The notes below the pieces were generated by a model, which was not told the DNA's origin, searched no databases, and saw only the letters and a program-made list of their open reading frames with translations. Below are positions 1,264 to 53,026 of a stretch of DNA of 54,041 bases, in pieces (the first letter of the stretch is position 1; the number at the start of each line of letters is the position of its first letter). The translations under genes and the position numbers were made by a program. Where the stretch lies: positions 1 through 54,041 of the IMG/VR virus record IMGVR_UViG_3300005914_000010. One strand, given 5' to 3'. The stretch comes from a virus (taxonomy: Duplodnaviria > Caudoviricetes).

Positions 1264-3393
1264 ATGACTAACTTAACCACAACCACAACATCTCGTGAAT
1301 TAACAACTATGTTCAAGTTTAAAGCAGAACAGGTATTAGATGAGTCTAAGATAATAGTTCAGAACATCGAGCATAAGTCAGCTGGCTTCATTGCTAAGCG
1401 TCTAGTAGCTGTTCTTGAGAAGAAAGGTCACCTAACACAGTTCGACCCAGAGGATATGAGTAATGAATACTTATATAGATGCGACTTTGATGTGAGAACT
1501 ATCGCCATGCTAGGTGTGCAGCTTAGTGGATTAATAGTCCACATAGATAAGCCTATGGATATTGATAAGATAGCAGATGGTACATTCGCTTATAAGATGT
1601 TCAGGAACATAGCGAGAGCTAACCGCACTATAGATGGAGTCTTTGATGAATGTTATGATAACAAGGCACATTGGGTTACTAAGGTTAGAAGAGGCCTGAA
1701 GTTAGCTATTGATGCCAATCTACTAGATGAAGAAGACGGCATGATAGTTAGATCTAAAGCCTACATATCAGGATGCATTAGTAGAAGAAGCATAGTACAT
1801 CAGACTTCACCTATCACTGACGACACTCGTCGTAAGGAACGTGTTAAGAACAAGATGCAGCCTCGTAAAGATGGCACATCTAGTAAGGTAAGAGAAGCTT
1901 TAGCTTTCATAGAAAGCCAAGGACAATCAGTAAACGTTAATCTACTAAATGTAGTGCAACAGTTTATGAAAGATAGTGTTGAATGTAACATACCTTATCC
2001 TGATGTTATACAAGACTCGCTACATGTTATTGAAGGGTGTCAAGAGCTGAGGAATGAGAATGTACTATATTCTGAGTACTTCCAAGACCTTAGAGGTAGA
2101 ATGTATCAGTTCGCACATGGTGGACCTAACCCACAATCTAGTGACTTAGCAAGAGCATTGTGTTACCATGTAGAGTCTAATATAGTACATAAGACTGATA
2201 CAGCATGTTATAGCTTATTCATGAATGAGATGACTAACGAGATAGCGAAGTGTGATTACGCTATGTTACCTCAAGTGATAACTTGGGTAGCTGAGAATCC
2301 ACTAGATGCTATAAAAGAATATTACCGTGTAGGTAGTGACCTTGGTGGAGTTAAGAAGTTCTGGACTTACTTGACACTATGTCAGGACTGGTTGAACTTC
2401 GAGACACAAGGCTTCACTGATTGTAGAATAGGCTTTGGGCCAGATGCTAAATGTTCAGGTGCACAGATACTAGCTATACTCGCTGGTTGTGAGACTATGG
2501 GAAAAGCTTGTGGATTGACTGATCAGGACAGAGGAGATGATCCATATGAGTTATCAACACAAGAAATAGTAAGATTACAACAGAGTTCTACTAGAGCTGA
2601 GTTCCGTGGAGCGTTGTTGCTAATGAGGGAAGAGATTAAGACTTGCTTTATGGCGATACAGTATGGTGGTGGTAGTGGAGTGTTAGCTGGTAGTAACGAG
2701 TTCATAATAGCAATGAACAGAATAGGTATTCCTAACCATATGAGAGATGAGTTCTGTAAGAAGATAGTTAAGAGAGGTATAATCAATGCCCTTGGTCCAA
2801 AGATCAATGCCCTGATAGAAGGTATGCAGGCAGCAGCAAAGCAGATGCAAGAAATGACTGGTAAAGACTACTTTGAGTATAAACATGTTGATGGCAACAC
2901 TTGCACTAAACGTGGTGAAGCTCAAGTTAGAATGACTGATAACCACTTCAAGATTAACTTTGGTGAAAGAGATAACGCTATTATCTTCGGAGCAACAGAA
3001 GAGAGTAGGGCAGGAGATACAGGTTGGAAGGTACAATCGCAGACTATAGATACTCTACAAAGAGCTAACTTTAGTTACTACTTCCCTGTTCACTTCATTC
3101 AAGGCCTTGATAGTGTTATAGCTAGAGAGATAGCTCTACAGGTTAAATCGAGAGGACTGAAAGGGTTTACTACGATTCATGACCAGTTTAGAGTATGCTT
3201 GAGAGATGCTCCTATAATGATGGAAGCGGTAGCAGATGCTTACAGAGTAGTATTCATACAGAATAACCCTATCAAGAAGCTTCAAGAACAAATGAGGGGA
3301 ATAGTGATAGAGACATTAAACCCACTTGAAGATACACTTCAGATAGTAACTGAGGCAGTACTTACTTCAGATAAAGCTTACTACTTCGAGTAG
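1264..3393 (+). CDS. single-subunit (T7/Chaseviridae-type) DNA-directed RNA polymerase, 709 aa
   Basis: motifs FQDLRGRMY (DxRGRxY), A DAKCSGAQ, B RxxxKxxxMxxxYGG, C IHDQF; aromatic C-terminus YYFE. Confidence 0.95.
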   Translation: MTNLTTTTTSRELTTMFKFKAEQVLDESKIIVQNIEHKSAGFIAKRLVAVLEKKGHLTQFDPEDMSNEYLYRCDFDVRTIAMLGVQLSGLIVHIDKPMDIDKIADGTFAYKMFRNIARANRTIDGVFDECYDNKAHWVTKVRRGLKLAIDANLLDEEDGMIVRSKAYISGCISRRSIVHQTSPITDDTRRKERVKNKMQPRKDGTSSKVREALAFIESQGQSVNVNLLNVVQQFMKDSVECNIPYPDVIQDSLHVIEGCQELRNENVLYSEYFQDLRGRMYQFAHGGPNPQSSDLARALCYHVESNIVHKTDTACYSLFMNEMTNEIAKCDYAMLPQVITWVAENPLDAIKEYYRVGSDLGGVKKFWTYLTLCQDWLNFETQGFTDCRIGFGPDAKCSGAQILAILAGCETMGKACGLTDQDRGDDPYELSTQEIVRLQQSSTRAEFRGALLLMREEIKTCFMAIQYGGGSGVLAGSNEFIIAMNRIGIPNHMRDEFCKKIVKRGIINALGPKINALIEGMQAAAKQMQEMTGKDYFEYKHVDGNTCTKRGEAQVRMTDNHFKINFGERDNAIIFGATEESRAGDTGWKVQSQTIDTLQRANFSYYFPVHFIQGLDSVIAREIALQVKSRGLKGFTTIHDQFRVCLRDAPIMMEAVADAYRVVFIQNNPIKKLQEQMRGIVIETLNPLEDTLQIVTEAVLTSDKAYYFE

Positions 3394-3860: not shown

Positions 3861-4429
3861 TAAGTATGTCATGGGGTTACGTAATCATATGTATATTAAC
3901 TTGGCCCTAAGCGTGTATAACTAGGAAGTAGCAGATTCGATTGCTAAACACCTACACATTAGTATGTCATGTGGTTACACCATTATTTATTCATAGCATA
4001 TCATTGAGGACGAACTTGTTCGATCCGATATTAAGAGTAGAAACAAATAAAGTTCTATTCTTTAACCTACACGGTTGGTGACTCTTTGAGTATGTAATGG
4101 TGTAACAATTAACTGGAGAACCAGAATGAAGATAATAAATATTGTGGTGACGAAGATTAGTATGTCATAGGGTTACAGCGTTGAGTCGCAGACTCCCTAT
4201 GTCTTACTTTGGGTTGGCTTGTTAGTCTGAAAGAATAAGTTGGAGCAGAGCGACCCACGTACAAACTGTCAGAGAGCCATACCCACCATGAACTTGTGAT
4301 AGTATGTCCCATGGTAACAATAAAGTATGTAATATTGTCATGACACAGACCGATTAGTAACAACCTATTATATGTACTAGGGTTACGCTTTAAGTATGTC
4401 ATGGGTTATGTACCATAACATGGGGTAAC
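3861..4429 (+). repeat. cluster of ~9 copies of the 20-bp motif wwAGTATGTCATrGGGTwAC
   Basis: copies start at 3861, 3959, 4087, 4157, 4299, 4322, 4367, 4391, 4410; irregular spacing. Confidence 0.85.
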
Positions 4430-5516: not shown

Positions 5517-5776
5517 ACCTAATGCCAAGAGATAAAAATTTTAAAATTGAAATAAACAAAATTGTAACAAAGAAGACGTCTCTAAAGGAAATAAAAATTG
5601 GAGACGTATTCGAACGAGAGGGTTCATTACATATGCGTACTCGAGTAAATGATTCCAACGAAGAGTATCTCATATGGGTGGTGAACTTGAACACTGGCAA
5701 TACATGGAGAACTGATGCTAACCAAAGTGTAATAGTAGTGAATAATGTGTTAATTAAATACGACAAAGAAGTCTAG
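5513..5776 (+). CDS. hypothetical protein
   Basis: ORF overlapping the upstream stop. Confidence 0.65.
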   Translation: MNLMPRDKNFKIEINKIVTKKTSLKEIKIGDVFEREGSLHMRTRVNDSNEEYLIWVVNLNTGNTWRTDANQSVIVVNNVLIKYDKEV

Positions 5777-6281
5777 CAAAGTTGGTAAAATAATTTGAAG
5801 ACTGTAAGTAACAAAAAGTAGCAAAGCTACTCAAAAAGAAATTGAAGAGATGACAGAAGTAGTGTTCCTACATCTCTTAAAAGGGCAGGCATGGCTCCTC
5901 TGAAAACAAACCATGTACGAATTCGCTGTGCAGACCCGAGGTCAGGCGGCAATCATGGATAGTCTACTACATGTAAAACTAGATCGCGCTTTTAATATCT
6001 GCGTAAAATATTAATCATCGTTAAGGTGCGATGTTAAATAAATCCCCAACCCTTAGTCTAGCTGGTTTAAAATCAAGACTCGTGTCGCGGTGGGCGTTAC
6101 GTTAAGCAACATCCCACCAACATATAGCTATATATGATTGCAAGTGATTTCTATATCTAGGGAGATAACCCTATACTGTGGTATCACAAAGTCATGAACT
6201 CAGAGAATGACAAATAGCTTAATCAATTTAATTAATTTAAACAAACTTAACTAATAGAACTTAATTGTTCGGAGAAATACC

Positions 6282-6722
6282 ATGTCAAACAAGAAAGCAG
6301 TATTAAGTACTCCAGTAATCGCAGTAGAAACTGTAGCTGGTGAAGCAACTATAACACCTGTGGAAGCAACTGTTGCAGTTAAAACACAGCTGCCAAATGG
6401 CACACGTGGCGAAGCAGTATTCGCAACACAGCTTACTTCGTTAAACCGTCGTAACGAGAAAGACCCTCATTTCTTTGGTAGTGTAAAGATCGAAGGTTTA
6501 TGGTACCAATTGGCCACTTGGATTAACATTGCTAACAATGTTCAGAACTTGTCTACAGCATATGCACTTATGACTGAAGAGCAAGCTATCAGAGCCGAGA
6601 TTCGAGAAGAAGAGTTTCAGAAACAGCGTGCTGTTAGAGCTAACCCTCTCAGCATGCCACCTGTTAACCCTCTTGCAGAAGAAGGTGATAAGCCAGATCC
6701 AAACCCTGATTCACCTCTATAA
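6282..6722 (+). CDS. hypothetical protein
   Basis: GGAG SD; Pro/acidic tail. Confidence 0.8.
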   Translation: MSNKKAVLSTPVIAVETVAGEATITPVEATVAVKTQLPNGTRGEAVFATQLTSLNRRNEKDPHFFGSVKIEGLWYQLATWINIANNVQNLSTAYALMTEEQAIRAEIREEEFQKQRAVRANPLSMPPVNPLAEEGDKPDPNPDSPL

Positions 6723-10748: not shown

Positions 10749-12500
10749 ATGGCCGGTCAATGTATCGAAAAGCTAGTACATGACCATCCTAAATGCTCAA
10801 GTGTAAACAAATCGTTACAGACATTCTTAAACGACGACGATACATTTAGTGGTTTTTGTTTCTCATGTGCTAGAAGAGTGCCAAACCCTTACGGCAACAA
10901 TCCACCAAAGCTGAGTGAAATTCATGTAAAGACTCCAGAAGAGATTGCTGAAGAGATACAAGAAGTTCGTGAGTGCGATAAATTCAGTATAATGCATCGA
11001 GACATAACACCTGAGAATTGGGCGTACTACGGGGTACGCATGATATTATCGTCGTACGATGGTACTACGCCCTATGCCTTAGGTCATCCTTTCACTAAAG
11101 ACGGTAAAATATGTGGTTTTAAGATCAAGTTACTTGGTCAGAAGACCATGTGGAATGTTGGTGATGTCAAAGGTGCTGACCTATATGGTTGGGAACGAGC
11201 TAAAAGAGTAGGCGGGGCTAATCTCTGGATAACAGAAGGTGAAGAAGACGCTATAGCTCTACGTCAGATAATGCGTACTCTAAATAAGGGTACTAAATAT
11301 GAGGATATGGATTATGCAGTTGTGTCTCTTCCATCAGGAACAAACAACGCAGCCGACGTCATTGGGCGAATGGCTGAAGATATTAGATCCAGATTTAAAA
11401 AAGTGGTGCTTGTCTTTGATGACGACGCTCCAGGAATCAAAGCGTCAAGGGAAGTTAGAAAGATTATGCCAGACGCAGAAGTCGCGAAACTCCCTGAAGT
11501 GGATGCAAATGCGTGTCTCACTGCTGGAAGGCTCAAAGCAACTAGAGATGCCGTTTTATTCAACTCAAAGAAACCCGTTAGTAACAACACCTTATCAGTT
11601 GACGACGTACTAGACGATATAATGAGTGACCCTGAATGGGGCGCTCCATATCCTTGGCAATCAATGACTAAGCTAACTTATGGTCAACGTAAGGGTGAAC
11701 TGATTTCTATCGGTGGTGGCACTGGGTGTGGTAAGACACTAATAGGCCACGAACTGGCAGCATTCAATGCTACTCAAAATGGATGGAGGTCACTATGTAT
11801 TATGATGGAGGAGACTCCTGCAGAAACATATAAAGCTATAGCTGGTAAGATAGATAATGTACCGTATCATGTACCTTTGGAAGAGGGGGCTAAGCCATAT
11901 GATAAGAGTCAGTTACGAAAGACTGTTATTCATTTGCGTGACTTTGTCACAGTATGGGATATTGCAACAATTGAAGACCCTGAGACTACTTGGGAACAAA
12001 TTACGCAAGTAATTAGAACAATGGGTAAAGACTTTGATTGTGTAATGATTGACAATGCAACAACATTATCTGAAGGTTTAAACATATCTGAGAAGAATGA
12101 GTTCATAGGTAAAGTAGCAGATGAGTTTGCTAAGTTAGCTAAGAAATTTGACTTCGAAGCCATAATGTTTAGTCACTTAAATGCTCCAGATAGAAGTGCT
12201 AAGTCACATGAAAATGGTGGTAAGGTGTTGGAGAGTCAGTTCACTGGTTCTAGAGCATTACAACGTTATTCACATATGATGATGGGCTTTGAACGTAATA
12301 AAATGGCAGTTGATCCTGACTGTTCTATTACTCGATTATTGAAGAACAGGAAGTTTGGTAAGACTGGTATGTATAAAACATATTACTCTCAAAAAACTGG
12401 TAGGCTTCAAGAAAGATCATGGGATGATGAGTTGTATAAGGACAAATCAGTTGGTGGTAAAGAACCAACAGGTAAAACCTTTACACCTATCAGACCTTAA
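10749..12500 (+). CDS. T7 gp4-like DNA primase-helicase
   Basis: N-terminal Cys/His cluster (CFSC), TOPRIM ITEGEEDA and FDDD, Walker A GGTGCGKT, SF4 motifs MIDN, FSHL, GSRAL, KNR. Confidence 0.95.
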   Translation: MAGQCIEKLVHDHPKCSSVNKSLQTFLNDDDTFSGFCFSCARRVPNPYGNNPPKLSEIHVKTPEEIAEEIQEVRECDKFSIMHRDITPENWAYYGVRMILSSYDGTTPYALGHPFTKDGKICGFKIKLLGQKTMWNVGDVKGADLYGWERAKRVGGANLWITEGEEDAIALRQIMRTLNKGTKYEDMDYAVVSLPSGTNNAADVIGRMAEDIRSRFKKVVLVFDDDAPGIKASREVRKIMPDAEVAKLPEVDANACLTAGRLKATRDAVLFNSKKPVSNNTLSVDDVLDDIMSDPEWGAPYPWQSMTKLTYGQRKGELISIGGGTGCGKTLIGHELAAFNATQNGWRSLCIMMEETPAETYKAIAGKIDNVPYHVPLEEGAKPYDKSQLRKTVIHLRDFVTVWDIATIEDPETTWEQITQVIRTMGKDFDCVMIDNATTLSEGLNISEKNEFIGKVADEFAKLAKKFDFEAIMFSHLNAPDRSAKSHENGGKVLESQFTGSRALQRYSHMMMGFERNKMAVDPDCSITRLLKNRKFGKTGMYKTYYSQKTGRLQERSWDDELYKDKSVGGKEPTGKTFTPIRP

Positions 12501-12915
12501 AGTTGTAAAAGTATCTCGGGATCGCCACATACCAAAGAGATACCCCTTAATGAGCGGCCAGTTCGTGTGTGGAGGTGACATGCCCATTAAGGACAAAAAA
12601 TATCTCTTTGGATACGAGTATAAACTAATCCCGTGAAGTGCAACACGCAAACAACTGTCAATGATGAACGCTGACATAAACTAGCATCAAAGTCAATGTA
12701 AGACTATAAATACTCTCGCGTTTCCTCCAAGCGTATGAGGTAATGAGGGAAAACTGCAGCTATGCGGAACCCTTTGAAAAAGTAAATAGCTACACAAGCA
12801 GGATGGTAATCTGCAATCACAAAGTTTAATAATATACATTATCAAATAGAGTGACACTGGGAGGTGATTCATCTTAACGAGTTCTATGTCGTTGTAAAAC
12901 TATTTAGACATTGGT

Positions 12916-13166
12916 GCAGTAGCACTCGCTTAGCCCCGTAAGGGCTTTTAAATTATACAACTAACTTAGTCCGTGGCATCGCTACCTTGGGCAGTTAGAC
13001 GAACTCAGTAACGTCTAAAATAATATCTGAGGTTACTTTATGTGGTGATAGATGCGTAGGTTACGCTGGTGGTCGTAAAGCCATTACTCTGTTGATTACT
13101 CCTGCTCGTACGAGGGAGGCTATGTCTTGGGTCCAAGGTAGGTTAAACTCCTATCGCACTGCACCA
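12916..13166 (+). ncRNA. candidate tRNA/tmRNA-like structured RNA ending in ACCA
   Basis: terminal helix 12911-12920/13158-13167, T-arm GGTAGG-TTAAACT-CCTATC, H-type pseudoknot 12995-13031. Confidence 0.5.
12932..12949 (+). terminator. possible intrinsic terminator
   Basis: AGCCC-CGTAA-GGGCT followed by a short T run. Confidence 0.35.
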
Positions 13167-13191
13167 AATTTAATAACTTAAGGAGAACCTT

Positions 13192-13413
13192 ATGATTGTC
13201 GATAAAATTGACTTCATGGTAGAAATAATTGATGCTAAAGACAATCGTAAAGAGGTGACCTCTGATCAGTTCTATGAAGTAGCAATAAAGAGAAACAACA
13301 CAGCTAAAAGAATTCCAATATTGATGCGAGAAATGGAAGCTCTGAGGGATGGTCAGACTCTACTAGGTGACGATATACACTTAATTGGAATGAAGATTAG
13401 GAGGTTACCATGA
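13192..13413 (+). CDS. hypothetical protein
   Basis: AAGGAG SD. Confidence 0.75.
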   Translation: MIVDKIDFMVEIIDAKDNRKEVTSDQFYEVAIKRNNTAKRIPILMREMEALRDGQTLLGDDIHLIGMKIRRLP

Positions 13414-13694
13414 ACTTTTTATCAAAAACAATAAATAAATTTAGAAATGTGAGAAGAGAGCCATTATATAATCCAGACTTCATAAGAGACAAATATGAAA
13501 ATTGCAACCTACAGATAGTCAGAATAGGATTAGACAATTTTAATATTCTAGTAAATGCCAAATATATTTACGTAGACACTTGGATGAGTGGAGACACCTA
13601 CGCATGGTCGGCTAAAGGATTACAGGGTCCTATTGATATATTCGTTGAAAGATTTGGTGACAAAGTAATTATAACAAGGGACGATAGGCTATGA
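13410..13694 (+). CDS. hypothetical protein
   Basis: GGAGG SD; ATGA coupling on both sides. Confidence 0.75.
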   Translation: MNFLSKTINKFRNVRREPLYNPDFIRDKYENCNLQIVRIGLDNFNILVNAKYIYVDTWMSGDTYAWSAKGLQGPIDIFVERFGDKVIITRDDRL

Positions 13695-15739
13695 GACTAA
13701 ATGAAACACAGATGAGTATGTTCCCGACAAAAGTGCGCGACAGTGCCACTCTCTGGAGCTGTGACATCGAATCGACTGGTCTCCTTGAGCACCTTAATGA
13801 ACAGGGCGAAAGTGCCAGACTACACAACTTTGGAGCAAAGCAGGGCAACACAGAGATTCTCTTCTCTGCAGCCCACAACAGCCTTGACCACAGGGCATGC
13901 CCTGACATCAGACCGCTCTCAGAGTTACAGCAGTGGCTCACTGAGGGACACTCACTGGTCATGCACAATGGTATGGGCTATGACGGTGAGGCACTAAAAT
14001 TTTTTGGGTACGATGTTTCAAACAATTATATTGTTGATACAATGTATCTAGCTTGGTATCTAGAACCTAGACGTATGCGCTACGGCCTTGAATACTACGG
14101 TGAAGAATTTGGTATACCAAAGCCACCCATCATGGACTGGATAAATGGCCCACAGGAAGAATACAACAGACGTGTAATGCAAGATTGTCGTATTCAAGAG
14201 AAACTATGGGACAAATTGTGGAATATGTTGCTGACAATATATGGTAACGAAGTGGAGTCTTGGAGACTTATTGATTATCTAATGATCAAGTCAAAGCATC
14301 TTGTCAGTGCCCAAAGAACTAAATGGAAACTAAATATACCTAGCGCTGAAGAACTATCAGCAGAGTTACATGTAGACAAAGAAATTAGACATAAAGAACT
14401 AGTGGCAGTAATGCCTAAAGTGCCTTTATACAAAGATAAGAAACGCTGTGCTAAGCCATTTAAAGGCAACGGCAGTCTATCAAGTCATGGTATCAAGTGG
14501 GTTAGATTCTGTCTACAATACGGTATAGATTTCAATAGCATCGAAGAGTATAAGTGGCACGATGGATACAATGAAGGCAACCCCAATGCTCATGGACAAA
14601 TAAAAGAATGGTTATTTGACCTAGGTTGGCAACCAGAAACATTCGTATACAAAACGGAGTATGACGAGTATGGCAAACGTAAAGAAAGAAAGATTCCGCA
14701 AATCAATGTTAAAAACTCTGGAGGGCTGCTTGACCCAGATATTGTGCGTATGCTTGATGATCATATCCAGCTTAAGTTTCTGGAAGGTCTGGGGATTGTC
14801 AACCATAGGATTTCAATCGTTGATGGCTGGCTTCGGGATCACATAAATGGTTATTTGATTGCTGGTATCGGTGGACTGACAAACACTCTAAGACTTAAAC
14901 ATAGGGAAGTGGTGAATGTACCGTCTGATCGTGTTCCATATGGTTCAAGATTACGTGCATTATTAATTGCAGATGAAGGATACGTGTCACTAGGCAGTGA
15001 TTTATCGTCTTTAGAAGACAGATGCAAACATCATTATCAGATACCACTTGATCCTGAGTATGTTAAAGAGCAGAGTCACGCAGATTTTGACCCTCACCTA
15101 CTTATTGCTGGTTTGGCTGGTCTAGTATCAGATAAAGATATAGCAGAGTTTAAATTAGGTTTAAATGAAGACAACTCTCCAGTAGGGAAACTGAATAAAG
15201 ACCAATTTAAGCATATAAAGAAATCTGTTAGACCAAAAGGTAAAGCAACTAACTATGGATGTCAATATGGTGCAGGCGCTAAGAACATAAGCAGACAAGC
15301 TAAAGTATCATTTCAAGTAGCAGAACTATTACACGCAGCTTACTGGGAAGCAAACTGGTCTATTAAAGAGATTGCAGCCAGCACAGAAGTTAAGGCGGCA
15401 TGCGGTGAGAAGTGGCAACGTAATACTGTGAACGGGATATGGTATTGGTTAAAAGCTGAGAAAGACCGTTTCTCAACTCTATGTCAAGGTACAGGTTCCT
15501 TTGTATTTGACATGTGGTTAGAACAGGTATTCGTAATATGCCAAACAAGATGGAAAAGAGACCCTCAAGTCCATGCACAGTTCCACGACGAGTTCATTTT
15601 GAAATGTAAGTCTAATCTGAAAGACCTATGGTCTGAAGTAGTGATGACTGCTATTGCGCAAACAAATGGTTTACTTGGAATGAGAAGAGAAATGAATTGT
15701 GACGTGCAGTTCGGTGTAAGTTATGATCAGATTCATTAA
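13691..15739 (+). CDS. family A DNA polymerase with 3'-5' exonuclease (T7 gp5-like)
   Basis: Exo I CDIES, Exo II HNGMGYD, motif A SDLSSLEDR, motif B KxxNYGxxYG, motif C QFHDE. Confidence 0.95.
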   Translation: MRLNETQMSMFPTKVRDSATLWSCDIESTGLLEHLNEQGESARLHNFGAKQGNTEILFSAAHNSLDHRACPDIRPLSELQQWLTEGHSLVMHNGMGYDGEALKFFGYDVSNNYIVDTMYLAWYLEPRRMRYGLEYYGEEFGIPKPPIMDWINGPQEEYNRRVMQDCRIQEKLWDKLWNMLLTIYGNEVESWRLIDYLMIKSKHLVSAQRTKWKLNIPSAEELSAELHVDKEIRHKELVAVMPKVPLYKDKKRCAKPFKGNGSLSSHGIKWVRFCLQYGIDFNSIEEYKWHDGYNEGNPNAHGQIKEWLFDLGWQPETFVYKTEYDEYGKRKERKIPQINVKNSGGLLDPDIVRMLDDHIQLKFLEGLGIVNHRISIVDGWLRDHINGYLIAGIGGLTNTLRLKHREVVNVPSDRVPYGSRLRALLIADEGYVSLGSDLSSLEDRCKHHYQIPLDPEYVKEQSHADFDPHLLIAGLAGLVSDKDIAEFKLGLNEDNSPVGKLNKDQFKHIKKSVRPKGKATNYGCQYGAGAKNISRQAKVSFQVAELLHAAYWEANWSIKEIAASTEVKAACGEKWQRNTVNGIWYWLKAEKDRFSTLCQGTGSFVFDMWLEQVFVICQTRWKRDPQVHAQFHDEFILKCKSNLKDLWSEVVMTAIAQTNGLLGMRREMNCDVQFGVSYDQIH

Positions 15740-16187
15740 TGTAATACGTAATAAATTTTACGACAGAGATGGAGTATTGTATACCAGAAGAGGTAATAAA
15801 CCTGCTGGTAGTATAGGCTCCGGTGGTTACTTGAACATTAGGGTTGATATTGACGGTAAAAGAAATAACTGGAAGGCCCATAGAGTCATGTGGTTATTAT
15901 ACAACGATTCAATACCTGATGTACTTGATCACATAGATAGAAATAAACTAAATAACGCTATCATAAACCTACGGGAATCAAACCCTGAGGAGAATGCCCG
16001 TAATAAAGGCGAGTATAGCAATAACACTTCTGGAATGTCAGGTGTCTCACCAAGAGGCAATGAATGGAGAGTACGTCATAATTGTAATCATATTGGTTAC
16101 TACGACACTTTTGAAGAAGCGTGTACAATAAAAACAATACCTTATGGAGAATTAAAGAATGTTTGCACAAGCAACGAAAACAGGTAA
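15723..16187 (+). CDS. free-standing HNH homing endonuclease
   Basis: AHRVMW..LDHIDRNKLNNAIINLR..EN; C-terminal NNTSGxxGV (AP2-like). Confidence 0.9.
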   Translation: MIRFINVIRNKFYDRDGVLYTRRGNKPAGSIGSGGYLNIRVDIDGKRNNWKAHRVMWLLYNDSIPDVLDHIDRNKLNNAIINLRESNPEENARNKGEYSNNTSGMSGVSPRGNEWRVRHNCNHIGYYDTFEEACTIKTIPYGELKNVCTSNENR

Positions 16188-16942: not shown

Positions 16943-17521
16943 ATGATTTTAGCAAGAGAGCTACTGAAGGAATTAAGAGATAGAAATATTCCAGCATGTG
17001 TTGCAGGTGGATATGTACGCGATATGATTCTAGGGCGAAAGCCTAAAGACATGGACGTAGTAGTATTCGGTGACCATGTCAATAGAAGAATTATTGATTG
17101 GCATGATGCTGCCACAATACTGACTGATGTAACTCATGAAGTACAAGAAGGCATATTAATAATTACAGACGAGAGAGGAATTGCGTCTTACCCTGTGGAT
17201 ATAATTCAACATTTATTCAAAGGTAAATACAAAGGAATGGATGTAGACTTAATATTCTACAAAGAAGTATACTTTAATGCTACAGCGGTAATCGACTCAT
17301 TCGACATGAGTATCAACCAAGGTTACATTACGGAAAAAGAATTTAAAGCTCCAGATGTAACAACATTAAAACTAAATAATTTAGCTCGTTGTACAGAAGC
17401 TAGAGTGGTAAAAGGTTACAATATGATAATGGATAATTATTGCAAGAATCATAACATATTGATACCTGGAGCTACCAATATGCATCCTACTCCTAAAGGA
17501 GTGACCCCATGCATGAAATGA
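16943..17521 (+). CDS. class II nucleotidyltransferase head domain (CCA-adding/poly(A) polymerase-like)
   Basis: AGGYVRD..GRKPKDMD signature and FDMSINQ (variant of RRDFTIN). Confidence 0.85.
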   Translation: MILARELLKELRDRNIPACVAGGYVRDMILGRKPKDMDVVVFGDHVNRRIIDWHDAATILTDVTHEVQEGILIITDERGIASYPVDIIQHLFKGKYKGMDVDLIFYKEVYFNATAVIDSFDMSINQGYITEKEFKAPDVTTLKLNNLARCTEARVVKGYNMIMDNYCKNHNILIPGATNMHPTPKGVTPCMK

Positions 17522-18545: not shown

Positions 18546-18788
18546 ATGTTTTTCGTAGTGCACCATCATATAGATCATGATAAATGTAAAGAAATAATAG
18601 CCTTCAGAACAAGGGTAGAATGCGAAGAAGCAATTGGAAATAACGAGTCTACTATCGTAATAGATGCTATAGTAAATTCCTATAATCCAGAAGATATGTT
18701 CAAATTGGGTGGCCTACTGGAGGGCGAAGCTATACCGATGCAACACATATTAAACTTAATAAAGGGACAAGATGTACGGGTGGTGTAA
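18546..18788 (+). CDS. hypothetical protein
   Basis: GGAGG SD. Confidence 0.7.
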   Translation: MFFVVHHHIDHDKCKEIIAFRTRVECEEAIGNNESTIVIDAIVNSYNPEDMFKLGGLLEGEAIPMQHILNLIKGQDVRVV

Positions 18789-19296
18789 GACAGATAAGAT
18801 GTTTGCTAAATGGCTCCAAGGAACTATACGTAAAACATTCTCGAAGCACCCAGCCAGACTAGCCCTGATAGAGAGAAAAAGGTATCAAGCGTTCAATAAA
18901 AATACTGGACGCAAATGCTACCACATAGATTGCGAGAAATGCAACACGTCGATACCTATGGGTAAAGGCGGTGGGACAATAGAAGTTAACCATAAGAACA
19001 CCGTTGGTGGTTTTAAGGATCTTGATGTAGAGAAATTTAAAATATTTGTGGTTAACTTACTACTGGTTAGGGAAGATGAATTAGAATTGTTATGCAGGAG
19101 ATGTCACGGTATAGTAACATATAGCGAGAGATCCGGAATGACAATTGAAGAATCAGCAATTGAGAAGAGAGTTATTAAATTCTGTTCACGACCAGCTGTT
19201 GAACAGAAGAGGCGATTAATTATCGCTGGTATGGAACCGGAAGCAACTGTAGCGAAACGACGTATACAGTTACGTAACTATTTAAGAAACAAATAA
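18772..19296 (+). CDS. HNH/zinc-finger endonuclease
   Basis: CEKC ... EVNH ... LLCRRCH pattern. Confidence 0.75.
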   Translation: MYGWCKTDKMFAKWLQGTIRKTFSKHPARLALIERKRYQAFNKNTGRKCYHIDCEKCNTSIPMGKGGGTIEVNHKNTVGGFKDLDVEKFKIFVVNLLLVREDELELLCRRCHGIVTYSERSGMTIEESAIEKRVIKFCSRPAVEQKRRLIIAGMEPEATVAKRRIQLRNYLRNK

Positions 19297-48615: not shown

Positions 48616-48963
48616 ATGAATTTATCAAAATGGAAAGACGACTTTTGTCTTAGAGTAAGATTAAATAAGATTTACATATGCCCTGCTGCTATTAGATTTA
48701 TTAACAACCCCATGTCTGCTGGAAGTAAAAAGAAATATGTTAGAGGTGTATGCTCCTTTCTAAGGGCACAAGGTCTACCAAAAGAGCTTGAGAAATTTGA
48801 GCATTTGTTTGTAGAAAAGATGACTGAAGTAGTTGTAGAAGTAACTCCTGAAGTAACTCCTGAAGTAACTCCTGAAGTAACTCCTGAAGTAATTCCTGAA
48901 GTAACTCCTGAAGTAACTCCTGAAGTAACTGAAGAAAAGACTACCGAAGACGAAGAAGATTAA
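48616..48963 (+). CDS. hypothetical protein with EVTP repeat tail
   Basis: ORF track; tandem repeat. Confidence 0.7.
   Translation: MNLSKWKDDFCLRVRLNKIYICPAAIRFINNPMSAGSKKKYVRGVCSFLRAQGLPKELEKFEHLFVEKMTEVVVEVTPEVTPEVTPEVTPEVIPEVTPEVTPEVTEEKTTEDEED
48838..48930 (+). repeat. 12-bp tandem repeat GAAGTAACTCCT x7.75
   Basis: counted directly; one copy has a C>T change. Confidence 0.95.
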
Positions 48964-50605: not shown

Positions 50606-53026
50606 ATGGATTACTCCTTATTTTTTGACGGGTCCGGGTCCCTCGGTATTTCGGGGGTTAAATTACATACCAAGAGTTTTCTTACCAATTTCGAGTACGA
50701 ACTAACCGCTTTCTTTGGAAATACTGGTTATGATAAATTAACTATTGTAGGTAAAAACTTTAGTAGTAATGGTTTCATAAGCCTAACTCCCACAGCTTGC
50801 GCTATAAAACATGGTAACAAACTCGGCACCATTGTTACCATTCCTATTACCCTTAGTTTTAATGACACTACACAAGTCATTAAAATAACTAGAAACGGTA
50901 GCAACTATACAGTTCTCAGTGATGGCGTTTCAATCGGTTCTAAAACAGCCTCACCATCGAATAATGAAAATTTACTAGACCGTATAGGTTCATCTGGATT
51001 TTCAGACAACAGCGACGGCAACAGAATACAAAGACTGATATACCGCGAGGGTTCACCATTAGTAGATGTCCACGACTGGGATGCTAGTTCTAGTGGCGGT
51101 ACGGGTACTACGATTACCGACTCAATTGGTGGCAATACCGCAACTCAGATAGGTACATGGCCAGCAGATGATAGCGAGTGGTATTTAGAAGGAGGGGCAG
51201 CCGTTCCTGTCGGAGTCCCGTCAATCGGTACGATCACAAAAACCGAGACAACCGCTTCAATCCCTTGGACTTACACAGATGGCGACGAAACCGGTTTTGA
51301 ATATCGACTAGATGCAGGGACTATTATAGATGCAGGGACAAGCCCATTATCATTAACAGGGCTGACAGCCAGCACTTCGTACGATGTTGAAATTAGGGCG
51401 TATAACGCAACTGGTGATGGTAGTTGGTCGAGTGTTACAGCGTTTACTACTGAAGATGCGGCAGTGGTTACAGAGGGTAACTTAGCAGTACAAATGGTAA
51501 GTAATACGGTATCTGCGATTGGTATAATAGGCCAAGCCGTGACAGGTCAACTGGATAAGTCATTAGATATAAATGAGCTTAACTCAGACGGTATAATAGG
51601 CCAGTCTATATTAGGGGGCCTAGACGGGTTACTTGAATCAGATAACTTATTTTCTCAAGGGGAAATAGGTCAAGCGATATCGGGATCTCTCAGTGAGTTA
51701 CTAAACAGCAGCTCTTTAACATCAGTGGGTGTTATAGGAAGTGATATAGTAGGTGTGCTAAGTGGGCAGATAAGTAATAGTACCCTTATAGCAGGGGGTT
51801 CCATTGGACAAGCTATAGTAGGGGCACTAAGTAGACAACTTGATATCAATATATCAAATATAGATGGAACCGTAGGGTCGGCAATACTGGGTTCTATGAA
51901 TGTAGAATTCGATGACACTATATTGATATCTGACGGTACTATTGGTCAGGCTATAGCAGGCTCTATAAGTGAATTATTAGAAGACAATACATCTTCTATA
52001 TCAGGAGTTGTAGGTCAAGCTATTACTGGAGCATTGAACAAACTATTAGATAATAGTACTCTTACTTCGAGTGGAATTATAGGCCAAGCCATAACAGGTG
52101 CTCTAAATGAATTACTAACAAGTAACAAATTAACGGCAAGTGGTGTTATAGGTCAAGCAATAGTAGGCTCGTTGAGTGAGCTACTAGAAGATAATAATCC
52201 ATCCATAGCTGGGGTTGTAGGTGAAGCTATAGTTGCAACACTAAATGCCCAACTAGATGGTGATACTATAGATGCCAATGGTGTCATAGGGCAAGCAATA
52301 CTAGGAGCGTTAAGTGAACAACTAGACGTAAATACACTTAGCTCAACTGGTGTAGTAGGCAACGCCATTGCAGGCTCTTTAAGCATACAATTAGATGATA
52401 CTATATTGTTAGCTGACGGTATAATAGGCCAAGCAATAAATGCTACCTTGAATGCAAACAACGCTGATAATAAATCTACTATAATTGGGACTATTGGACA
52501 AGCAATATTAGGAGCATTAAGTGAACAACTCGATGTAGATATACTTAGTGCCACTGGTACTATAGGTAGTGACATTGCTGGTTCACTTAGTATTAAATTA
52601 GATAACAACATATTATTAGCGAATGGAGTGATAGGTCAAGCAATAATTGCTACTCTAAATACTACAAATGCTGATAATACATCTGTTATAATTGGGACTA
52701 TTGGGCAAGCTATTGCAGGTACTTTGGAAATAGATGCAGAAGATGTTAACCTAGAAGCACTTGGTGTTACAGGAATAATATCTGGAAGTGTCAATATCCA
52801 GCTAGAAGATGGTACATTATTATCCGCTGGCTTCTTAGGCTTGATAACTGTAGGCTGTAATGATATATCAATAAGTTTCGAATTTGTAAACCCTGATATA
52901 AATATTGACGCTGGGCAACTAATAAGTTTCGAATTTGTAAACCCTGATATAAATATTGACGCTGGGCAACTAATAAGCAACAAAGAAGAAGCAGACATAA
53001 ATATAGGAGATGTACTATGCGTTTAA
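50606..53026 (+). CDS. virion appendage protein: lectin/LamG-like domain, FN3 domain, 23-aa repeat stalk
   Basis: FN3 signature W..Y..LTGL..T.Y.VEIRA.N..G.GSWS; ~18 GxIGQAIxG repeats. Confidence 0.75.
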   Translation: MDYSLFFDGSGSLGISGVKLHTKSFLTNFEYELTAFFGNTGYDKLTIVGKNFSSNGFISLTPTACAIKHGNKLGTIVTIPITLSFNDTTQVIKITRNGSNYTVLSDGVSIGSKTASPSNNENLLDRIGSSGFSDNSDGNRIQRLIYREGSPLVDVHDWDASSSGGTGTTITDSIGGNTATQIGTWPADDSEWYLEGGAAVPVGVPSIGTITKTETTASIPWTYTDGDETGFEYRLDAGTIIDAGTSPLSLTGLTASTSYDVEIRAYNATGDGSWSSVTAFTTEDAAVVTEGNLAVQMVSNTVSAIGIIGQAVTGQLDKSLDINELNSDGIIGQSILGGLDGLLESDNLFSQGEIGQAISGSLSELLNSSSLTSVGVIGSDIVGVLSGQISNSTLIAGGSIGQAIVGALSRQLDINISNIDGTVGSAILGSMNVEFDDTILISDGTIGQAIAGSISELLEDNTSSISGVVGQAITGALNKLLDNSTLTSSGIIGQAITGALNELLTSNKLTASGVIGQAIVGSLSELLEDNNPSIAGVVGEAIVATLNAQLDGDTIDANGVIGQAILGALSEQLDVNTLSSTGVVGNAIAGSLSIQLDDTILLADGIIGQAINATLNANNADNKSTIIGTIGQAILGALSEQLDVDILSATGTIGSDIAGSLSIKLDNNILLANGVIGQAIIATLNTTNADNTSVIIGTIGQAIAGTLEIDAEDVNLEALGVTGIISGSVNIQLEDGTLLSAGFLGLITVGCNDISISFEFVNPDINIDAGQLISFEFVNPDINIDAGQLISNKEEADINIGDVLCV
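51521..52760 (+). repeat. ~18 degenerate 69-bp (23-aa) coding repeats
   Basis: G[IVT][IV]GQAIxGxL recurs every 23 residues. Confidence 0.85.
52870..52977 (+). repeat. exact 51-bp tandem duplication
   Basis: 52870-52920 equals 52921-52971 (ISFEFVNPDINIDAGQL x2). Confidence 0.95.

Follow-up and report, generated by a model that had tools for sequence, protein, structure and literature searches.

A putative tRNA-gene relic in a probable terminator and leader region between the helicase and DNA polymerase genes of a Chaseviridae-like phage

The phage and the gap in its replication module

The stretch of DNA analysed here (the window) is a complete virus record from IMG/VR, 54,041 bp in length, in which essentially all of the long open reading frames (ORFs) lie on the + strand. 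The window phage is Chaseviridae-like; its helicase is 65-70% identical to those of Vibrio phage VPs20 and Aeromonas phage pAh6-C, both of which are Chaseviridae. According to the ICTV profile of the family, the Chaseviridae carry their own RNA polymerase, the promoters are unknown, and tRNAs are encoded by some members. Among the papers listed by literature searches, none concerns a tRNA-like element of this family. Between the primase-helicase gene and an operon of small ORFs and the DNA polymerase gene, the window phage has a gap of 690 nt (12501-13191) that contains no credible ORF. The landmarks are as follows:

1264-3393, T7-type single-subunit RNA polymerase
10749-12500, + strand, primase-helicase (Pfam DnaB_C and Toprim), the upstream neighbour of the gap
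12532-12611, + strand, long imperfect hairpin, outside the interval of main interest; its outer arms pair perfectly over 11 bp and its inner arms at 10 of 11 positions; part of the minimum free energy (MFE) fold
13691-15739, family-A DNA polymerase

The 80-nt hairpin at 12532-12611 sits directly after the helicase stop codon and is absent from L013, one of the two closest relatives (see below); it is a candidate RNase III-type processing site or attenuator. The fold of 12501-12952 as a whole is not unusually stable (z -1.66).

The window phage is unchanged in four salt-lake DNA runs (six matching runs were listed, all of them DNA and from salt-lake metagenomes), and no population variants occur within the element described below. 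Because the four salt-lake copies are identical, they provide no population covariation that could be used to judge its structure. A DNA search with 12500-13200 against GenBank phages gave no match.

The replication module also contains two HNH homing-endonuclease ORFs (15723-16187 and 18772-19296, + strand), the first of which overlaps the 3' end of the DNA polymerase gene. At 16943-17521 (+ strand), 3.8 kb downstream of the element, a 192-aa ORF carries a class-II nucleotidyltransferase head motif of the CCA-adding enzyme/poly(A) polymerase type (Pfam PolyA_pol, 25.5 bits; the best solved match is a tRNA nucleotidyltransferase-related protein). A 68%-identical copy is present in the L013 record, and none was found in the record of the other close relative, L002, which is 93% complete; weak homologues, 26-31% identical, occur in nine T7-like Vibrio and Pseudomonas phage records. 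In the ORF-poor gap of 1.26 kb that follows the RNA polymerase gene, the motif AGTATGTCAT-nn-GGTTAC is found in four copies within 460 nt (3862-4410), with a fifth similar copy near 4392; all are on the + strand, against a chance expectation of 0.26, and they are candidate phage-polymerase promoters or origin iterons. Much farther along, a 12-nt tandem repeat lies inside an ORF (48800-48955, + strand), and an 806-aa ORF, likely a tail fibre, contains at 51500-52971 (+ strand) repeat arrays whose periods are 69 nt and 207 nt, as well as a stretch of 51 nt that is exactly duplicated.

A variable slot in the relatives

Relatives were collected by protein-guided searches, and a comparable gap is present in L002, in L013 and in the pair formed by VPs20 (record L007) and L010, with lengths of 590-750 nt in L002, L013 and VPs20. 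The helicase of L002 is 79% identical to that of the window phage and is followed by a gap at 5746-6410; in L013 it is the DNA polymerase that is 79% identical, and the gap lies at 156-743. Both records come from a single metagenome. A metagenome scan with the helicase returned two short contigs, L005, which ends before the gap, and L006, which has a macro-domain ORF in place of the gap. Since L003, L004, pAh6-C and ZPAH14 have no gap here at all and L006 has that ORF instead, the position is a variable accessory slot.

Our main interest is in the interval 12911-13167, and its features, together with the ribosome-binding site that follows, can be listed as follows:

12911-12920, + strand, 5' arm of a 10-bp inverted repeat, specific to the window phage
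12932-12949, + strand, hairpin resembling an intrinsic terminator and followed by a short T run; unchanged in L013, and present in similar form in L002
12950-12991, + strand, conserved block downstream of the terminator, part of a match to L013 288-345
12992-13133, + strand, variable middle, not alignable with relatives; the corresponding stretch of L013 measures 341 nt and includes a tRNA-Asp
12995-13031, + strand, hairpin and pseudoknot motifs, overlapping a sigma-70-like -35/-10 candidate (12996-13024) with 9/12 promoter matches
13137-13155, + strand, T-arm-like hairpin with a 6-bp stem and the 7-nt loop TTAAACT, from RNAalifold over the window phage, L013 and L002
13156-13166, + strand, acceptor-strand-like 7 nt followed by ACCA; GCACCA, then A or T and ATT, is identical in the window phage, L013 and L002
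13167-13194, + strand, conserved spacer, Shine-Dalgarno sequence AAGGAG (13180-13185) and ATG of ORF73, part of a match to L013 687-748

The window phage and L013 can be aligned at only two places in the gap, 12932-12991 (87% over 61 nt) and 13134-13196 (83% over 65 nt), while the 142 nt between the two blocks are not alignable and the flanking coding DNA is 72-82% identical. Global alignment of the window with the L002 gap is essentially random. L002 shares the terminator-like hairpin with L013, in a match that includes about 40 nt upstream of it.

In several relatives, the slot or its surroundings contain material of tRNA type. ARAGORN calls a tRNA-Asp in L013 (513-586), whose Rfam score of 22 bits falls short of the gathering score (29); the fold of L013 475-730 is not unusually stable (z +1.06). 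The VPs20 slot holds a 63-nt tRNA-like piece that lacks an anticodon arm (21.5 bits and E 0.13 against the tRNA-Sec model), and L010, the closest relative of VPs20, has not retained it. In L003, where the slot has no gap, a terminator is followed by a tRNA-Arg that ends in ACCA and then by the ribosome-binding site of the helicase gene, which is the layout seen at 13137-13194 in the window phage. L004 has, behind its helicase stop codon, a ribosome-binding site similar to that of ORF73.

Some further observations concern these records themselves. The VPs20 piece (L007 5347-5409, equivalent to about 12678-12740 of NC_079185) is unannotated, in a record that annotates only 39 features; it has a canonical T-loop, an acceptor stem and a D-arm-like hairpin, and a small membrane-protein-like ORF with its ribosome-binding site follows directly. 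A conserved non-coding segment is located near or just after the helicase stop in L007 (5212-5272), L010 (5814-5873) and L006 (1254-1333); it consists of an extended Shine-Dalgarno-like sequence, AAGGAGGTGATC, and then a hairpin, and is 93% identical between VPs20 and L010. In addition, an octamer at 13065-13072 (+ strand), within the interval, recurs by eye in an 81%-conserved non-coding block of VPs20 and L010. It is identical to the E. coli Chi sequence; with two copies in the genome against 0.72 expected, it is not enriched.

Probable terminator, conserved block and promoter candidate

The earlier note on this DNA, made from the window alone, pointed to a terminator-like hairpin near the 5' end of the interval, and that hairpin is indeed there (12932-12946). 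It has a 5-bp stem with four GC pairs and a tail, TTTAAATT, that offers a run of only four Ts, and it is present in a single copy in the genome. The hairpin and tail (12932-12949), conserved in L013 and L002, probably end the helicase transcription unit.

Does transcription start again downstream? The promoter candidate matches 9 of 12 consensus positions and is no better than background, with 4 such sites found against 3.1 expected. By eye, the window phage and L013 would seem to have in common the string GACGAAC with a -10-like hexamer 16 nt later. In the repetition check, the motif TTAGACGAAC gave 57 matches where 46 were expected, and the 5' block has no second copy in the genome, so that neither sequence is a recurrent phage promoter. 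A motif search of IMG/VR with the 5' block matched the L013 contig only. The putative leader that would follow (13030-13195) has a fold of ordinary stability (z +0.06).

The arrangement resembles the terminator/restart-promoter units found between phage operons, in that a GC-rich hairpin and T run (12932-12949), conserved in relatives, precede a -35/-10-like site. It differs from them in the shortness of the T run and in having a promoter that is only a consensus match, in a family of phages that use their own RNA polymerase with unknown promoters.

The 3' piece

At 13137-13166 the sequence has the geometry of a tRNA 3' half, in which a 5-bp T stem with its 7-nt loop is followed by an acceptor strand of 7 nt, a discriminator and CCA. 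The sequence of the loop is a different matter. The canonical T-loop reads U54-U55-C56-R57-A58, while the three loops read TTAAACT (window phage), TTTGACT (L013) and TCGCCAG (L002), and C56 is absent from all three. The loops of the window phage and L013 keep T1, T2, R4 and A5, and that of L002 is not T-loop-like at all.

In the three sequences the stem is paired at every position (15 of 15 cells), and four of five pairs have changed on both sides. These double changes all stem from L013, where one A-T pair has been inserted on both strands, and they should therefore be counted as one or two events; the covariation support for the hairpin, which comes from three sequences only, is thin. The earlier note had named loss of the T-arm and ACCA in relatives as a finding that would speak against its reading; no such loss has occurred, and the piece is kept in both closest relatives. 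The spacer and ribosome-binding site that follow (13167-13194) are likewise conserved with L013, although the downstream ORFs differ. The hairpin lies 25 nt before the Shine-Dalgarno sequence of ORF73 in the window phage; in L002 the 3' piece precedes the terminator-like hairpin and has no ribosome-binding site directly behind it.

An exact 30-mer of the 3' end had no match in IMG/VR, a motif for the 3' block matched only the L013 contig in IMG/VR and nothing in the GTDB genomes, and the motif shared by L002 and L013 matched only those two contigs in IMG/VR. A motif built from all three 3' pieces matched 19 IMG/VR stretches, of which two are the relatives themselves, eight are of tRNA-Tyr type and nine are unrelated. 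The eight tRNA-Tyr-type sequences end at the motif match and lie in tRNA clusters of larger phages, and ARAGORN called a tRNA-Tyr at three of the five that were scanned. When a covariance model of the 3' piece was applied to tRNA-Tyr genes, the E values were 0.002 to 2.3, and these matches are circular because the motif that retrieved the loci came from the sequences underlying the model. That model found no extra copy in the records of five relatives (best non-self match, E 0.25). The Rfam tRNA model had no match on the window phage, even when given only a 71-nt slice around the piece. As an aside on tRNA calling, L022 2413-2500 and L023 5988-6075 are near-identical to the ARAGORN-called tRNA-Tyr genes of L026 and L031, yet they are not called.

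In their 3' halves, phage tRNA genes and pseudo-tRNAs have the same combination of a 5-6-bp stem, 7-nt loop, 7-nt strand, discriminator A and encoded CCA, and the tRNA-Arg of L003 is placed, like the 3' piece here, 10-15 nt before a ribosome-binding site. With phage tRNA-Tyr genes the likeness extends to the sequence of the 3' end, from GGTAGG through CCTAC to GC-ACCA, and L002 and L013 have, by eye, a tRNA-Tyr anticodon-arm-like stretch with an enlarged loop upstream of the hairpin. The piece differs from phage tRNA genes in having no D-arm, no anticodon arm, no conserved 5' acceptor strand and no C56, and in going undetected by ARAGORN and Rfam. From the geometry and these short similarities, we consider that the 3' piece is likely of tRNA ancestry.

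tRNA-like RNAs without a decoding function include species 1 and 2 of the phage T4 tRNA region and the bacterial Y-RNA-like YrlA, for which Rfam includes a family. The likeness is that these phage or bacterial RNAs, too, have kept features of the acceptor and T-arm but have no anticodon function; the difference is that there is no sequence or model match to them (none in Rfam at E<=10).

The interval as a single tRNA- or tmRNA-like RNA

The earlier note had read the whole of 12911-13167 as a single RNA of about 250 nt, a tRNA/tmRNA mimic or a degenerate tmRNA. All of the motifs that it listed can be found in the DNA. The perfect 10-bp inverted repeat is present (12911-12920 and 13158-13167), and so is the tRNA-like 3' end, with GGTAGG, a 7-nt loop and CCTATC at 13137-13155 and then GCACTGC-ACCA at 13156-13166. 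The proposed pseudoknot can be drawn, from a hairpin (12995-13001 with 13011-13017) that carries CTCAG in its loop, able to pair with CTGAG at 13027-13031, but it is not conserved, and L013 has neither the hairpin nor its pairing partner. In the same way, the complementarity of the internal helix ATCGCTAC/GTGGTGAT is real, but the internal helices are not conserved.

The evidence argues against the larger claim that these motifs belong to one RNA. The terminal helix of 10 bp is specific to the window phage, as are the pseudoknot and the middle. In the aligned stretch of L013 nothing is complementary to the repeat's 3' arm, there is no pseudoknot in L013, and a conserved terminator-like hairpin lies 20 nt inside the 5' end; the 257-nt unit is therefore not supported. 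The interval is not unusually stable as a whole, with an MFE of -79.1 kcal/mol, a z score of -1.70 and 11 of 200 shuffles folding as well (the minus strand gives z -1.84). An unusual value does come from pairing the 3' tail with the 640 nt upstream, where the best duplex, at -19.5 kcal/mol, is equalled in only about 1 of 300 dinucleotide shuffles, for a helix that had been picked from a reading of 54 kb. No upstream partner of the tail is better than chance in L013, where 79% of shuffles are as good, or in L002, where 32% are. In the window phage this helix also buries the ACCA.

The programs that recognize tRNA and tmRNA found neither in the interval. ARAGORN reported no genes in the whole window, and none at 90% or 80% thresholds. 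Its calls at 70% were treated as noise, amounting to 4-7 each in the window, L002 and L010 and 3-4 each in L007 and L013, with none on the element as defined. Allowing introns of up to 400 nt yielded no tRNA, none of 5300 internal-deletion variants scored as a tRNA, and neither ARAGORN nor Rfam found a cloverleaf with D, anticodon and T arms. Rfam placed no family in the window at the gathering score; at E<=10 its only match in 12500-13500 was at chance level (AbsR11, E 7.7) and was not a tmRNA, and the slice 13096-13166 had none. ARAGORN did call a 248-nt tmRNA in an unrelated IMG/VR contig, L029, which served as a positive control. That tmRNA (2009-2256, minus strand) has the tag GATQNALALAA* and lies within a tRNA cluster.

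The identity elements of tmRNA are missing as well. Alanine identity of tmRNA requires a G3-U70 pair in the acceptor stem, and here the register GCAGT(A)GC/GCACTGC puts A-U at the third pair, while the register GGTGCAG/CTGCACC puts U-A there. A tmRNA also has an internal tag frame, with a resume codon and a hydrophobic ...AA end; none of the three + frames in 12950-13140 ends in a tag-like C-terminus, and ARAGORN proposes no tag. The resemblance to tmRNA (SsrA) thus comes down to a T-arm-like hairpin beside an acceptor-like strand that ends in ACCA and, in the window phage, a long body between the 5' and 3' strands; the interval differs in lacking G3-U70, a tag frame, conserved pseudoknots and any match to Rfam or ARAGORN even at relaxed settings, and in a 5' half that is not conserved.

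A composite reading and its alternatives

We favour the explanation that 12911-13167 is a composite regulatory stretch that includes a conserved relic of a tRNA-gene 3' half, rather than one RNA gene, and assign it a probability of roughly 0.55. On this explanation, the helicase transcript would terminate at the hairpin at 12932-12949. A conserved block of 40 nt would come next, and transcription would restart within 12995-13030 from the probable promoter, giving a phage-specific leader of about 110 nt whose last part is the tRNA-derived hairpin, ahead of the ribosome-binding site of ORF73. The relic itself, consisting of the T-arm-like hairpin, the acceptor strand and the encoded CCA, would descend from a former tRNA gene. 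Since it has no D-arm, no anticodon arm and no C56 in its T-loop, it cannot act as a tRNA or tmRNA, and can be neither charged nor used in decoding. It would be kept under selection in the three phages, most likely as a hairpin of the leader that acts on the processing, the stability or the translation of the message downstream, and its retention suggests a role of this kind. Two facts sit awkwardly with the composite explanation. The L002 piece is upstream of the terminator and has no ribosome-binding site behind it, so that a leader role for one operon does not fit all three phages, and the strong long-range helix of the window phage is left unexplained.

If the relic is no longer a tRNA, why has it been kept? 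Perhaps it has not been kept in any functional sense, and is a neutral, decaying pseudogene whose apparent conservation reflects recent recombination among co-occurring phages. Decaying tRNA material does occur in the slot of relatives, and the loop sequences vary freely; with L002 and L013 coming from one metagenome and the window phage from four salt-lake runs, exchange is plausible. Against this, the blocks, at 83-87%, are conserved at least as well as the flanking coding DNA (72-82%), and the DNA between them cannot be aligned; the stem is still fully paired despite an insertion on both strands, and GCACCA is identical in all three phages though the L002 piece sits elsewhere. We consider this explanation unlikely. 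Quite unlikely, in our estimation, is a functional anticodon-less tRNA-like RNA that acts as a mimic or decoy. Once processed, it would present an acceptor-like helix, stacked on the T-arm-like hairpin and carrying a 3' ACCA, to factors that handle tRNA, such as RNase P, a CCA-adding enzyme, EF-Tu or a host tRNA-targeting defence. Such an RNA would account for the conservation of the 3' piece in all three phages of the clade that have the gap here, and for the 10-12-bp closing helix that beats chance in the window phage. In L002 a closing helix of 7 bp encloses a domain of 105 nt with a fold of z -2.32 (6 of 200 shuffles as good), VPs20 has its anticodon-less piece at the same genomic position, and the window phage and L013 each encode, 3.8 kb downstream, the head domain of the nucleotidyltransferase. 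Against this, conservation of the closing helix is lacking, since L013 has none and that of L002 is no better than chance, and in the window phage it buries the ACCA. The T-loop has no C56 and differs in sequence in all three phages, a terminator-like hairpin falls within the proposed RNA, Rfam gives no signal, the VPs20 piece is not retained in L010, and the nucleotidyltransferase was not found in the 93%-complete L002 record.

A more elaborate idea, which we regard as a long shot, runs as follows. A small Chaseviridae-like lineage would keep a selected tRNA 3'-half module on either side of the terminator, pairing it with a different upstream strand in each phage, and the resulting anticodon-less RNA would be a substrate or decoy for tRNA 3'-end enzymes (the mini nucleotidyltransferase at 16943-17521, RNase P, or a host tRNA-directed defence). 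An element that works at the level of DNA is very improbable, whether a replication origin or a miniature inverted-repeat transposable element with the 10-bp repeats as its ends. Terminal inverted repeats and a location in the replication module between the helicase and polymerase genes would suit such an element, but the interval has a single copy in the genome, no target-site duplication at its flanks and no AT-rich dip (GC 0.38-0.43), and the cluster of repeated motifs at 3862-4410 looks more like an origin or promoter array. Moreover, L013 has inner and 3' portions of the interval in common with the window phage and lacks the 5' repeat, so the interval is not a discrete insertion. The idea of a degenerate or novel tmRNA has next to nothing in its favour beyond the T-arm-like hairpin, the ACCA end and a length within reach of short phage tmRNAs (248 nt in L029); against it are the silence of ARAGORN at default, 90% and 80% settings and of the Rfam tmRNA model at E<=10, the missing G3-U70 pair and tag-like frame end, and a 5' part that is not conserved.

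Implications

A phage mimic of tmRNA or tRNA, if true, would be a notable RNA for counter-defence or for the hijacking of translation. The evidence points to something more ordinary, a terminator and leader region with the relic of a tRNA gene. Decayed tRNA genes of phages are already known, and the composite explanation adds a fresh example with a small conserved 3'-half module. It also carries a warning, that a T-arm and ACCA beside a ribosome-binding site in a phage genome can be the remains of a tRNA gene. For the Chaseviridae-like clade, the analysis marks a slot of tRNA gain and loss within the replication module. The retention of the small hairpin/GC-ACCA element in that slot needs an explanation, and may be linked to the mini enzyme of the CCA-adding type.
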